Shown here one piece after another: positions 2,835-6,888 of a stretch of DNA of 12,554 nt. The stretch is from IMG/VR virus record IMGVR_UViG_2740892211_000014, one strand, 5' to 3'. The DNA comes from a virus (taxonomy: Duplodnaviria; Heunggongvirae; Uroviricota; Caudoviricetes). Positions within the stretch are counted from its first letter, which is position 1. Each line of letters begins with the position of its first letter. The position numbers and the translations under genes are program-made. Below the pieces are notes generated by a model that was not told where the DNA came from, ran no database searches, and was given only the letters and a program-made list of their open reading frames with translations.

Positions 2835-3074
2835 TTGATTTTCCTTTTATGTATACGGGCTTAAAAGGATACCACCGAGCCTGAAGTGGTGAAAAGACAG
2901 GCACATAACAGCTAAGTATTTTCAACCAAAGAGAATCCTTAGCGTTGTGGTGAATGCGGCTCAGCGCACGCGGGTTAAGGTTGAGGCTGACAGTCGACCT
3001 TCTGTGGATACCCACCCGTCTGGTGTGCAACCTTCGCCAGGCACCGGGAGGCACCCGGCACCACAACTTTATGC

Positions 3075-3134
3075 TGTGTGTAGTCCTGGCGGTACCAGTT
3101 TGTACCCTTGCTTCCGGCTGGTACCGCTCTTTTT
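3075..3134 (+). ncRNA. Candidate DicF-like prophage sRNA ending in an intrinsic terminator
   Basis: Perfect 10-bp stem GCGGTACCAG (3089-3098) / CTGGTACCGC (3118-3127) followed by TCTTTTT. TGGCGGTACCAGTTTGTACCC resembles the 3' half of E. coli DicF (recalled as TGGCGGTATCAGTTTTACTCC ... CCGCC-TTTTT). Lies in an ORF-free stretch downstream of the immunity region, as dicF does in Qin. 5' end undefined. Confidence 0.3.
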
Positions 3135-3135
3135 A

Positions 3136-3222
3136 CAAAACAGAGAAGAGCATCACCGGACGACGGGCTCATAACCCAATCCATCCGGGCGGCGGTCACC
3201 GCAGGTGTTCTTCTCTGTTTTG
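3136..3222. repeat. 14-bp perfect inverted repeat flanking a 59-bp GC-rich spacer
   Basis: CAAAACAGAGAAGA (3136-3149) and TCTTCTCTGTTTTG (3209-3222) are exact reverse complements. Starts immediately after the terminator T-run. Spacer contains further short GC stems (CCGGA...CCGGG, CACCGC). Confidence 0.6.
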
Positions 3223-4449: not shown

Positions 4450-4508
4450 TTATCAGGACTGGAATTTGATATTACTGCCCGTGTGCAGCGGGCTAAGTGG
4501 AGAAACAT

Positions 4509-4715
4509 ATGCTGAACCTCGATTGTGTTCCAATCTCAACTTATTGCAAAGAAACTGGCGAAACTCCTGAAGCAATAAACAAACGTGTACAGCGCGGTGT
4601 TTGGCGTGAAGGTGTTCAGGTTTTAAAGGTTGAAGGCGTTAAGGAGAGGTGGATTGATCTTAGTGAGGTTGCAAAATGGGCCAGACAAAACTGCTCAAAC
4701 TACCGCGCGGCGTAA
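4509..4715 (+). CDS. xis: Excisionase-like DNA-binding protein
   Basis: ATG 4509 with GTGGAG upstream at 6-nt spacing. 68 aa, MLNLDCVPISTYCKETGETPEAINKRVQRGVWREGVQVLKVEGVKERWIDLSEVAKWA has excisionase-like winged-helix features. 3' end overlaps the int start by 40 nt, as in lambda xis-int. Confidence 0.6.
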   Translation: MLNLDCVPISTYCKETGETPEAINKRVQRGVWREGVQVLKVEGVKERWIDLSEVAKWARQNCSNYRAA

Positions 4716-5848
4716 CAATCAGGAAACACCGCCAGGGCGAAACGATCAATATAACTTTCACCTACAAAGGAGTTAAATGTCGTGAGCCTCTTTCCAATCT
4801 GGAAGTAACACCAAAGAACATTAAATACGCTGAGCGCACACTCGGCGAAATTCATAATAAGATCGAAAGGGGAACATTCATTTATGCGGAATATTTTCCC
4901 CGTTCTGCTCGTTTGAAAATTTTTGGTAATGCTGCTGCAGGCAAAACGGTAAAAATGTACCTGGACGAATACCTTGAAATCTGCGAAACGAGGAAACTTT
5001 CACCATCCACGATCGGTGGTTATAAAAAATGCCGTAGTGCGTTAGCCTCACTTCACATTTGCCCTGCAAGTGAATTAACACCAGCAACCCTGAAAGCGTG
5101 GATTCAAAGCCAGAAAACGACCTTAAAAACCATTCGCAACCAGTTATCTTTCCTGCGGTCAGCACTTGATGAAGCCGTGACCGATGGGGTACTTCAAATT
5201 AACCCCGTATCGTTAGTAACAGCTTCGCGCTACCAAAGTGATAAGTCAGAAGCAGAAAGCAGCTACGTAGTTGATCCGCTATCACCAGCAGAAGTTGATG
5301 CATTACTAGCAGCAGCCGGAAACAAACAATGGGAAAATCTGTTCCGGTTCGCTATACATACAGGCCTGCGTAGTTCTGAATTATGTGCCCTTCGATGGCG
5401 TGATATCGACTTTGTTGGAAAAACTGCCCATGTCCAGAGCGCAAGTGTTGTCGGTGTTATCAAAGGGACAAAGACAAAAGCAGGTACTCGGAAAGTTGAA
5501 CTGACAGAAGAGGCAATGTTGGCGCTGATAAATCAGAAGCCATTTACATTCATGAAGGATGCTACTGTCTTTGAAGATCCAAAGACCAATAAGCCTTGGG
5601 CAAGTGCTGATGCAATTAGGAAAAAAGCATGGGTGCCAACATTGCGAAAAGCAGGTATTCGTTACAGAAACCCATATCAAACCAGGCATACATTCGCCAC
5701 CAGCCATATCAGCCGAGGAGCAAACCTGTTTTGGCTTGCAGCTCAAATGGGGCATAAAGGGCCGGAGATGCTTTTCAGGCACTATGGTTCGTATCTTAAA
5801 GAGTATGATAACTTTACATCGATAAATCATTTGCATAATCATAATTAA
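4676..5848 (+). CDS. int: Phage tyrosine integrase (lambda-Int type with arm-binding N-domain)
   Basis: 390 aa. N-terminal KLPRGVTIRKHRQGETINITFTYKGVKCRE is arm-binding-like. C-terminal domain has the conserved R (FAIHTGLRSSE), the H-x-x-R context (RHTFATSH) and tyrosine in LFRHYGSY. Adjacent to the att repeat. Confidence 0.9.
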   Translation: MGQTKLLKLPRGVTIRKHRQGETINITFTYKGVKCREPLSNLEVTPKNIKYAERTLGEIHNKIERGTFIYAEYFPRSARLKIFGNAAAGKTVKMYLDEYLEICETRKLSPSTIGGYKKCRSALASLHICPASELTPATLKAWIQSQKTTLKTIRNQLSFLRSALDEAVTDGVLQINPVSLVTASRYQSDKSEAESSYVVDPLSPAEVDALLAAAGNKQWENLFRFAIHTGLRSSELCALRWRDIDFVGKTAHVQSASVVGVIKGTKTKAGTRKVELTEEAMLALINQKPFTFMKDATVFEDPKTNKPWASADAIRKKAWVPTLRKAGIRYRNPYQTRHTFATSHISRGANLFWLAAQMGHKGPEMLFRHYGSYLKEYDNFTSINHLHNHN

Positions 5849-5856
5849 TATTTAAT

Positions 5857-5884
5857 AATCCCCGCATTTTTAAAATCGGGGATT
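5857..5884 (+). promoter_or_regulatory. Hairpin between int and the cargo ORF: possible int 3' retroregulatory/terminator structure and/or RBS occluder
   Basis: AATCCCCGCATTTT / AAAATCGGGGATT form a ~13-bp stem with one bulged C and a 1-nt loop. The right arm contains GGGGA (5878-5882), the only Shine-Dalgarno-like element 7 nt upstream of the TTG start at 5890. The downstream U-tract is weak (ATTTAAAG). Confidence 0.4.
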
Positions 5885-5889
5885 TAAAG

Positions 5890-6669
5890 TTGATTACAAT
5901 TACATTCGACAAACTAATCACCTACATATCTTCAGTTGGTACTTTCATTTCAGCAATTGCTGCATTATATGCAATATGGTTAACGATATTTCAAAGAAGG
6001 CTCTCTTATAAACCCAATTTAGTGATAGACACTTTAAATATCAAGATGAATGTTAACGATTTCAACGGTTTTCATGTTGATATCTTACAAGCCCCTACGC
6101 TTCCACAAACAAAATTTTCAAACATAGGATTGGGGGCGGCAATTTCACTTAGATATCATTGGGATTTTAATTATAAAAAAAACATAAATCTATATTTAGA
6201 GTTGTTTTCGAAAAAATTCAAAAAAGAAGATAAATCTTTTACAACCGACTCCCAGTATGGAATATTCAAAATAATAAAAGAAAGAAAAGTATATATGTAC
6301 AATACTTTATCGACACCTTACGATATTGATTTTTCGTTACCATATAGTATAGATAAGAAGTCAAAAAACATTTTTGTACCAACCGCGGCAATTGATATTC
6401 TATTGAATATAGCATATCTTTCACATAGACTTAAATTAGTCGGTTCTTCATCATTCACTGGTCCAAAATTAATTATTGAATATCAAGATATAGAGGGTAA
6501 AACTAAAAAAGTCACTTGGCAAACAAAATTGGAACGTGGAGTGGCACGTTTCAGTGGTGATAATATGGAGGCAGATTTTGCACTACGGTTTACACCTGTA
6601 CCAGAGAAATGGACTACAAAAGGTCTAGAGAAGATACGCAAAAGCGCCGCAAACGCCATGTTCAGATAA
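5890..6669 (+). CDS. Hypothetical membrane-anchored protein, AT-rich cargo (moron) gene between int and att
   Basis: 259-codon ORF with TTG start; first in-frame ATG is codon 53. N-terminal hydrophobic segment ITYISSVGTFISAIAALYAIWLTIF predicts one TM helix before a ~220-aa Lys/Asn/Ile-rich domain. Markedly AT-richer than all flanking genes. No family recognised. Confidence 0.55.
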   Translation: MITITFDKLITYISSVGTFISAIAALYAIWLTIFQRRLSYKPNLVIDTLNIKMNVNDFNGFHVDILQAPTLPQTKFSNIGLGAAISLRYHWDFNYKKNINLYLELFSKKFKKEDKSFTTDSQYGIFKIIKERKVYMYNTLSTPYDIDFSLPYSIDKKSKNIFVPTAAIDILLNIAYLSHRLKLVGSSSFTGPKLIIEYQDIEGKTKKVTWQTKLERGVARFSGDNMEADFALRFTPVPEKWTTKGLEKIRKSAANAMFR

Positions 6670-6698: not shown

Positions 6699-6734
6699 TT
6701 TCAGACACGGGTTCAACTCCCGCCAGCTCCACCA
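6699..6734 (+). repeat. Diverged copy of the 3' end of the tmRNA gene ssrA (attachment-site repeat; not a full gene)
   Basis: TTTCAGACACGGGTTCAACTCCCGCCAGCTCCACCA matches the recalled ssrA 3' end (TTTCGGACGCGGGTTCAACTCCCGCCAGCTCCACCA) with 2 mismatches at the 5' side. No upstream tmRNA body is present in the window. Confidence 0.6.
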
Positions 6735-6861: not shown

Positions 6862-6888
6862 AAAGCCCGCATCAGCGGGCTTTTTTAT
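6862..6888 (+). terminator. Rho-independent terminator, probably the native terminator downstream of the ancestral ssrA 3' end
   Basis: AAAGCCCGC-ATCA-GCGGGCTTT stem-loop followed by TTTTATT, ~130 nt downstream of the ssrA 3' fragment. Confidence 0.65.

Follow-up and report, generated by a model that had tools for sequence, protein, structure and literature searches.

In this work we analysed a stretch of 12,554 nucleotides (nt) of phage DNA (IMG/VR record IMGVR_UViG_2740892211_000014), referred to below as the window, and in particular a short hairpin that lies between the integrase gene int of a lambdoid prophage and the cargo gene downstream of it; coordinates are window positions and refer to the + strand. 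Comparison of related loci indicates that this hairpin is real, that it is maintained by compensatory changes and that it is under selection. Its 3′ arm contains the Shine–Dalgarno (SD) sequence of the cargo gene, and the base of its 5′ arm belongs to a conserved promoter-like motif. The explanation that we favour, and to which we give about an even chance, is an IS10-style fold-back inhibition of the transcripts that read through the int–cargo junction. RNA reading through from int and the early-left operon would contain both arms, fold, and be translationally silent for the cargo. The cargo module would have its own promoter, predicted to be of the sigma-70 type (TTGCAT, 17 nt, AATAAT), and the cargo's own mRNA would start at about 5864–5868, lack the 5′ arm and have a free ribosome-binding site (RBS). 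Expression of the cargo would thus occur in the repressed prophage and be shielded from strong transcription of the lytic phase or of int. The elements concerned are the following.

4676..5848, + strand: tyrosine integrase gene int, 390 amino acids (AA), identified as an open reading frame (ORF), by Pfam (Arm-DNA-bind_2 and Phage_integrase) and by RefSeq annotation
5831..5836, + strand: −35-like hexamer TTGCAT, which also codes for Leu-His of the int tail; its TTG is conserved
5854..5859, + strand: −10-like hexamer AATAAT, exactly 17 nt past the −35-like one; the base of the 5′ arm consists of its last 3 nt
5857..5869, + strand: hairpin 5′ arm, AATCCCCG (5857–5864), bulged C5865 and ATTT (5866–5869), from folding and covariation
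5873..5884, + strand: hairpin 3′ arm, AAAT (5873–5876) and CGGGGATT (5877–5884), which holds GGGGA at 5878–5882
5890..6669, + strand: cargo gene with a TTG start, 259 AA, phrog_7259, about 30% guanine plus cytosine (GC), encoding an N-terminal transmembrane (TM) helix and an immunoglobulin (Ig)-like beta-sandwich, the latter according to a model

The full hairpin (5857–5884) reads AATCCCCG-C-ATTT-TTA-AAAT-CGGGGATT, that is, 8 base pairs (bp) plus 4 bp closed by a 3-nt loop, with a GC-rich stem core (CCCCG/CGGGG) and a folding energy of −11.9 kcal/mol. A previous sequence-only reading of this DNA had described a stem of about 13 bp beginning 9 nt past the int stop; the hairpin itself stands, with 12 bp and with 8 nt between the stop codon (TAA, 5846–5848) and the stem. 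The same reading proposed to fold the region 5840–5900, and this 61-nt stretch indeed folds at −16.4 kcal/mol, compared with −6.3 ± 2.5 kcal/mol for shuffled sequences (z = −4.0; 0/200 shuffles as stable). An 8-bp perfect inverted repeat is in itself not rare for 12.5 kilobases, and the window contains few hairpin-capable repeats of that size; the significance of the hairpin comes from its conservation and not from the size of the repeat. Rfam searches of the whole window, or locally at the hairpin, gave nothing near the gathering score.

Conservation was analysed in a collection of 44 fetched loci, with 28 loci distributed over three cargo subfamilies and a subfamily-1 set of 21 loci with homologues, 19 of them distinct. 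The subfamily-1 junction aligns without gaps upstream of the hairpin. When an 11-pair structure was scored on the MAFFT alignment of the 19 distinct loci, 85.6% of the cells were paired, versus 76.7 ± 1.6% in shuffles and at most 55.5% with slid partners, and 0/500 shuffles reached the observed pairing or covariation score. Several stem pairs show C-G to U-A double changes, and RNAalifold recovers the hairpin core. In the subfamily-1 loci where int is intact the hairpins range from −11.4 to −20.6 kcal/mol. The comparison of the window with L010 is instructive: the two cargo genes have a synonymous divergence (dS) of 0.62, all stem nucleotides are identical and the loop alone differs.

The hairpin is also present in more distant relatives. 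A tblastn search led to gp31 of the isolated phage LLS, which is 27% identical to the cargo protein and occupies the same slot between int and attP(ssrA). The LLS hairpin is an 11-bp perfect one of different sequence (AATTCCTGCCT/AGGCAGGAATT), and the hairpins of the LLS relatives and of a third subfamily (L044) range from −10.3 to −17.2 kcal/mol. A covariance model built on subfamily 1 did not retrieve the LLS-like subfamily, and for this reason subfamilies were compared by folding each locus in the register of its −10 hexamer. In all three subfamilies the pairs fall at offsets 5–13 from this hexamer and are CG, UA, GC, AU or GU. Two scans of species-representative genomes found no relatives. 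The conservation of the hairpin across proteins that have diverged to 27% identity argues that the structure is under selection.

The position of the GGGGA motif (5878–5882) in the 3′ arm, 7 nt upstream of the TTG start (5890–5892), had been pointed out before and is as described; moreover, the stretch from the stem to the start contains no other purine-rich SD in any locus examined. In the window, pairing of the SD with the anti-SD is worth −5.7 kcal/mol compared with about −12 kcal/mol for the hairpin, and in most hairpin-bearing loci the values are −4 to −7 kcal/mol and −10 to −21 kcal/mol, respectively (L022 combines an SD:anti-SD pairing of −11.0 kcal/mol with a hairpin of −20.6 kcal/mol). 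Because the hairpin far outweighs SD:anti-SD pairing, an RNA that contains both arms should be poorly translated. A quantitative rule linking the stability of such hairpins to translation is reportedly due to de Smit and van Duin. As in generic RBS-sequestering hairpins, the SD is thus held in a stem far more stable than its pairing with the ribosome; unlike in these, no trans-acting opener (ligand, temperature, small RNA or protein) is indicated here. The sequence-only reading had suggested that the hairpin could keep cargo translation low until the structure opens: the position of the SD and the energies support the occlusion, but the block is probably bypassed by an internal start rather than opened, as suggested by the conserved promoter-like motif.

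This motif has a remarkably constant geometry. All subfamily-1 loci except L025 have TTGCA(T/A), exactly 17 nt and an invariant AATAAT; LLS-like loci have TTGAAG, TTGAAC or TTGAAA, 17 nt and AATAAT, and L044 has TTGATA, 17 nt and GATAAT. In 14/14 int-intact subfamily-1 loci this Leu codon is TTG, although synonymous changes occur in four other Leu codons of the 120 nt before it. The 17-nt spacing stays invariant, even though the int stop is 5, 8 or 11 nt from the stem depending on the locus. A search of the window for TTG-N20-RATAAT gives a single match (0.33 expected), and 40/44 loci have this pattern at the corresponding position, the exceptions being L025 and three loci with other cargo; TTGnnn is absent from the int tails linked to other cargo. 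A consensus promoter scan also flags the motif in the window. The distance from a −10 hexamer to the transcription start (+1) is usually about 7 nt. Since the −10-like hexamer overlaps the base of the arm, +1 is predicted at about 5864–5868 (offset about 12), where the 5′ arm ends on its 3′ side, and the same holds for all subfamilies. To open the SD and start region would, as computed, cost 10–22 kcal/mol in the long RNA versus 2–9 kcal/mol in an RNA that begins at the predicted start, and the predicted short transcript of LLS is unstructured (z = +1.4). The order of the elements is therefore −35, −10 overlapping the 5′ arm, loop, 3′ arm with the SD, and start codon; the motif precedes and overlaps the hairpin, which is the reverse of a terminator-then-promoter junction. 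We infer from this layout the activity of the promoter, the position of its start, the effect on translation and the reason for insulation. Published transcription-start data for ST131 were looked for and none were found.

Slightly upstream of the −35-like hexamer, the sequence ATAAAT (5823–5828; a rare Ile codon ATA followed by AAx), at offsets −32 to −27 from AATAAT, is nearly invariant in its nucleotides in the 14 int-intact subfamily-1 loci. It could be an A/T-rich UP-like element, or could reflect composition bias alone.

The fate of the hairpin when int is lost is informative. int is truncated in three independent lineages (L014/L017/L026, L025 and L030). L025 and L030 have lost the hairpin (−3.8 and −0.5 kcal/mol, respectively) and have a strengthened SD (GGAGA, −7.4 kcal/mol, and GGAGG, −10.2 kcal/mol) relative to their nearest int-intact relatives, in which SD:anti-SD pairing is −5.7 kcal/mol; the L014 and L017 hairpins have a central mismatch. 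The cargo ORFs of L025 and L030 are full-length and their ratio of nonsynonymous to synonymous substitution rates (dN/dS) is 0.17–0.23, which denotes purifying selection. Decay of the hairpin next to a cargo gene that is still under purifying selection means that the cargo does not need the hairpin. From these comparisons it appears that the hairpin matters only when the upstream phage operon is present, and its loss in remnants devoid of this operon fits the fold-back model.

The same observations bear on the idea of a constitutive damping, in which every cargo mRNA would have the hairpin and a toxic membrane protein would be kept at a very low level or produced only when a signal opens the structure. 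The SD is occluded, the start codon is weak (TTG or GTG) in 15/19 distinct subfamily-1 loci, the hairpin is conserved with covariation and the cargo belongs to a fast-evolving family of membrane proteins, all of which would be expected in this case. However, two independent int-less remnants have lost the hairpin and strengthened the SD with the cargo under purifying selection, subfamilies 2 and 3 use ATG, a hairpin of −12 to −20 kcal/mol devoid of an opener would give almost no protein, and the fixed register of TTG-17-AATAAT with the 5′ arm is left unexplained. We therefore regard damping as improbable, and the earlier proposal that a toxic gene would by its nature call for an occluded RBS finds no support in L025 and L030, where an intact cargo gene under purifying selection is preceded by a stronger, unmasked SD.

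A structure just past int might also act on int itself. Two further features are needed here.

~6699..6734, + strand: attR core, formed by the 3′ end of ssrA/tmRNA (T-arm and acceptor strand; Rfam tmRNA 3′ fragment), the right end of the prophage
6862..6883, + strand: ssrA terminator, a canonical intrinsic terminator (terminator scan; 9-bp GC stem and TTTTTTATT; tail score −4.27)

The sequence-only reading had compared the hairpin with a terminator and with the lambda tI/sib region. This analogy had to be abandoned. On the + strand of the 21 subfamily-1 loci scored, the stem is followed by A-rich sequence (TTTAAAGTTG in the window) and not by a T-tract, and TransTermHP-style + strand tail scores are −1.5 to −2.9, to be compared with −4.3 for the ssrA terminator and −4.1 for the int-distal hairpin of L002, a locus with an AAA-ATPase variant of the cargo. 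No T-run is found past the stem in the subfamily 2 and 3 sequences either, and the terminator scan of the window does not call the hairpin. As no T-tract follows the stem, the hairpin is a poor intrinsic terminator, and an efficient one on the + strand is ruled out. A sib-like RNase III site is ruled out by the position of the hairpin, on the int side of the att core, and by a helix that is too short.

A milder version is that the hairpin is an int mRNA 3′-end element, either a weak terminator or a barrier to 3′ exonucleases, and that its overlap with the SD is a by-product of a compact junction. In support of this idea, the hairpin lies 5–11 nt past the int stop, outside the terminating ribosome, it decays upon loss of int, and other cargo modules also have a GC hairpin just past the int stop. 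Against it, there is no U-tract in the 21 loci scored and none is visible in the other two subfamilies, the hairpin of the DarTG variant more probably serves the convergent darTG operon as its terminator (− strand tail score −5.0), and neither the constant SD-to-start geometry nor the fixed −10 register is explained. Taken as the sole function of the hairpin, we judge this no more probable than damping; a stabilising role at the int mRNA 3′ end may nevertheless coexist with fold-back inhibition.

The proximity of the two genes raises the possibility of translational coupling, in which ribosomes ending at the int stop would melt the stem and the cargo would be made only with Int translation. 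In favour of this idea, only 41 nt separate the two genes, the hairpin is tied to the presence of int, and the hairpin of the window has an AU-rich extension in which the surroundings of the int stop pair with those of the TTG start. This extension, however, is not conserved across loci, where the conserved helix is 9–13 bp, and the int stop lies at a varying distance (5, 8 or 11 nt) upstream of the stem, neither within it nor abutting it. The helicase site of the ribosome is located about +11 from the P site, and a terminating ribosome would open at most 1–3 A-U pairs and none of the G-C core. Coupling is therefore quite unlikely.

Several observations weigh against the fold-back model. Two loci with a damaged int, L026 and L040, have an intact hairpin, and the link with int would be explained equally well if the hairpin stabilised the 3′ end of the int mRNA. 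In the −35 hexamer only TTG is conserved, and it is also an int codon; AATAAT lacks the consensus T at −12; and L025 has no −35 (TTTCAC), yet its cargo gene is intact. In the short transcript predicted for the window clade, the SD stretch GGGGAUU (5878–5884) can still pair weakly with AAUCACC in codons 8–11 (5913–5922), at −8.3 kcal/mol. Finally, G-U and A-C cells number 10 and 6, a difference that is not significant and makes the assignment to the + strand by wobble pairs weak, and three loci fold better on the − strand.

These last points lead to the question of whether the element acts as DNA or on the − strand, as a palindromic operator at the promoter or as a terminator for antisense transcripts from the AT-rich cargo. 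Besides the three loci just mentioned, the overlap of the inverted repeat with the promoter-like motif and the − strand tails (ATTATT...), with scores of −2.5 to −4.2 that are better than those of the + strand, would agree with this. But the arms covary and their spacing varies across loci (hairpin length about 27–30 nt), and no DNA-binding protein varies alongside, Int being 83–95% identical; the arm motif does not recur in the rest of the window; several int-intact loci have only weak hairpins on the − strand (for example L031, −4.5 kcal/mol, and L019, −8.8 kcal/mol); and no gene needs a terminator on the − strand. We consider this the least probable of the alternatives, with very little chance of being correct. 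Two specific DNA-level candidates were rejected separately: an operator shared with the immunity region, as the arm motif is not enriched (10 matches versus 10.5 expected in the window), and an Int core-type binding site, as the arms covary and Int and its ssrA target are constant.

The fold-back model has precedents in insertion sequences, and IS50 is similar to IS10 in its fold-back inhibition. In the account of IS10/Tn10 given in PMC13181058, which cites Davis, Simons and Kleckner (1985), an inverted repeat extends across the start site of the element's own transcript; the 5′ arm is present only in transcripts from outside, which fold and have their RBS sequestered, while the element's own mRNA lacks this arm and is translatable. 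The likeness lies in the geometry: here the 5′ arm is found past the −10 hexamer and before the predicted +1, and the 3′ arm includes the SD. The differences from IS10 are that the gene is a prophage cargo at the int–attP junction and not a transposase, that the predicted promoter lies in the 3′ end of int, and that outside transcription comes from the phage's own early-left operon or int. IS200 has two stem-loops, one that halts impinging transcripts and another that covers the RBS (PMC3196728); the gene is shielded from read-through as proposed here, but by two structures, the first of which is a terminator, whereas the window has one hairpin without a U-tract. As read-through-specific RBS masking is already known from IS10, IS50 and IS200, the advance made here is incremental.

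Phage systems offer partial parallels. The lambda tI/sib region is an int-distal RNA structure that controls int and whose effect depends on the promoter of the transcript; sib lies beyond attP, is separated from int in the prophage, and is a long RNase III substrate overlapping the true terminator (PMC2951348). An RNA structure distal to int with a promoter-dependent effect is also what is proposed here; unlike sib, the hairpin (5857–5884) is on the int side of the att core (6699–6734) and stays linked to int, its conserved helix is 9–13 bp instead of about 20 bp or more, and the target would be the downstream gene. Phage morons are promoter–gene–terminator insertions between genes, with their own promoter for expression from the repressed prophage (PMC3594210). 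The cargo module resembles them in its deviant GC content, its presence or absence, the alternative cargo found in the slot and the expectation of an own promoter; the differences are a promoter that would lie in the tail of int, an RBS masked by RNA structure, and a module in which no terminator was found.

Genes next to att in prophages face a particular problem, as they are needed in the lysogen, yet stand at the end of the most strongly transcribed early lytic operon. If the hairpin and the promoter work as proposed, they would offer phages a compact way of separating the lysogenic and lytic regimes. More tentatively, and with a clearly lower probability than fold-back inhibition itself, the int–attP slot may have an isoform switch, in which, through a promoter concealed in the int tail and a hairpin with its 5′ arm between −10 and +1, a fast-evolving, Ig-like, membrane-anchored exclusion or defence protein would be made only from the repressed prophage and silenced on the abundant early-left lytic transcripts. 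Were this true, the phage would be protected from its own cargo during lytic growth, and IS10-type fold-back inhibition would extend to prophage accessory genes as a general insulation principle. The arrangement provides a signature that can be searched for in other cargo hotspots (TTG-17-RATAAT, a pyrimidine-rich arm, a loop and a purine-rich arm with the SD), and for annotation it indicates that GC hairpins past int are not always terminators.

The genetic context is as follows. The window carries a lambdoid prophage in the E. coli chromosome, with yfdP/Q/R-like early genes, and its early-left operon ends with xis and int, int being the last gene. A xis-like ORF of 72 AA (4497–4715) overlaps the int start (4676) by about 40 nt, and in related loci a 68-AA ORF likewise overlaps int; this overlap fits co-transcription of both genes. 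On the right side, the region 6699–7000 matches, at about 98% identity, annotated ssrA 3′ ends of other E. coli together with the flanking DNA past them; the ssrA terminator is followed by the host genes glaH-lhgO-gabDT. As an ssrA 3′ fragment lies downstream of ORF 5890–6669, the prophage is integrated in ssrA and this ORF is cargo between int and attR. The related Int of phage LLS targets the ssrA 3′ end (PMC12315714), and the attP of LLS is annotated in a stretch homologous to the attR core of the window. From the cargo stop (6669) to the att core (6699) the terminator scan detects nothing, and in the prophage state the first good terminator past the cargo is that of ssrA at 6862–6883.

The left limit of the module lies inside int.

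5810..5830, no strand assigned: left edge of the exchangeable cargo module, within the last ~13 int codons, where backbone homology stops

Megablast matches to other int genes stop at 5809 and backbone homology stops at about 5809–5825, alignment with the AAA-ATPase, DarTG and phiNP loci diverges past ...EYD(N/G)xTS, and the GC content falls from ~0.45 to ~0.30 at this boundary. A swap boundary inside the last ~13 codons of int implies that each cargo module brings its own Int C-terminal tail. The cargo has a GC content of 0.29–0.31 compared with ~0.45 in int, and in related prophages the same int–attP slot is occupied by an AAA-ATPase gene or, on the opposite strand, by DarTG; an AAA-ATPase gene followed by a Dam methylase gene is found in L002, and an AAA-ATPase gene in L004 (Citrobacter phage phiNP). 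The module resembles a moron in this deviant GC content and in being present in some and absent from others of a group of related phages. Its junction is found in only 50/5426 complete E. coli genomes, all at ≥99% identity.

Comparison of the proteins shows that the TTG start of the cargo gene at 5890 is genuine. The 21 homologues (40–95% identity) align from their first residues, and residues 7–42, which include the TM helix, are the most conserved part; it is because this N-terminal membrane helix is the best-conserved part of the protein that we consider the TTG start genuine. An in-frame TTG, GTG or ATG is present 4–7 nt past the stem in every one of the 28 loci, the start being TTG or GTG in 15/19 distinct subfamily-1 loci and ATG in subfamilies 2 and 3. 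The PGAP annotation uses the same TTG. An alternative start at the ATG of codon 53, named earlier as an observation that would refute the occlusion of the start by the hairpin, is ruled out by the conservation of the N-terminal 42 residues. The annotation of the TTG start in this family of uncharacterised membrane proteins is thereby supported.

Some observations concern the cargo protein and its neighbours. The N-terminal TM segment (AA 7–42) is almost invariant, the remainder of the protein diverges to 27–45% identity and the adjacent Int is 83–95% identical; judged from the sequences, this pattern is typical of arms-race proteins. Elsewhere in the window, the prophage early region has a match to the STnc100 small RNA family (2922–3136, + strand) with a score of 42.1 bits, below the gathering score of 47, and E = 1.8e-6. 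In L025 (Cedecea neteri), where int is truncated, the intact cargo gene adjoins AbiTii and SymE-toxin genes. L026 and L027 are from Enterobacter hormaechei, and the intact cargo gene of L026 immediately follows smpB, at the place expected for ssrA. The cargo gene of L023 is followed by a second integrase gene and a SIR2 gene. By their gene content, the surroundings of the cargo in L023, L025 and L026 look defence-island-like.

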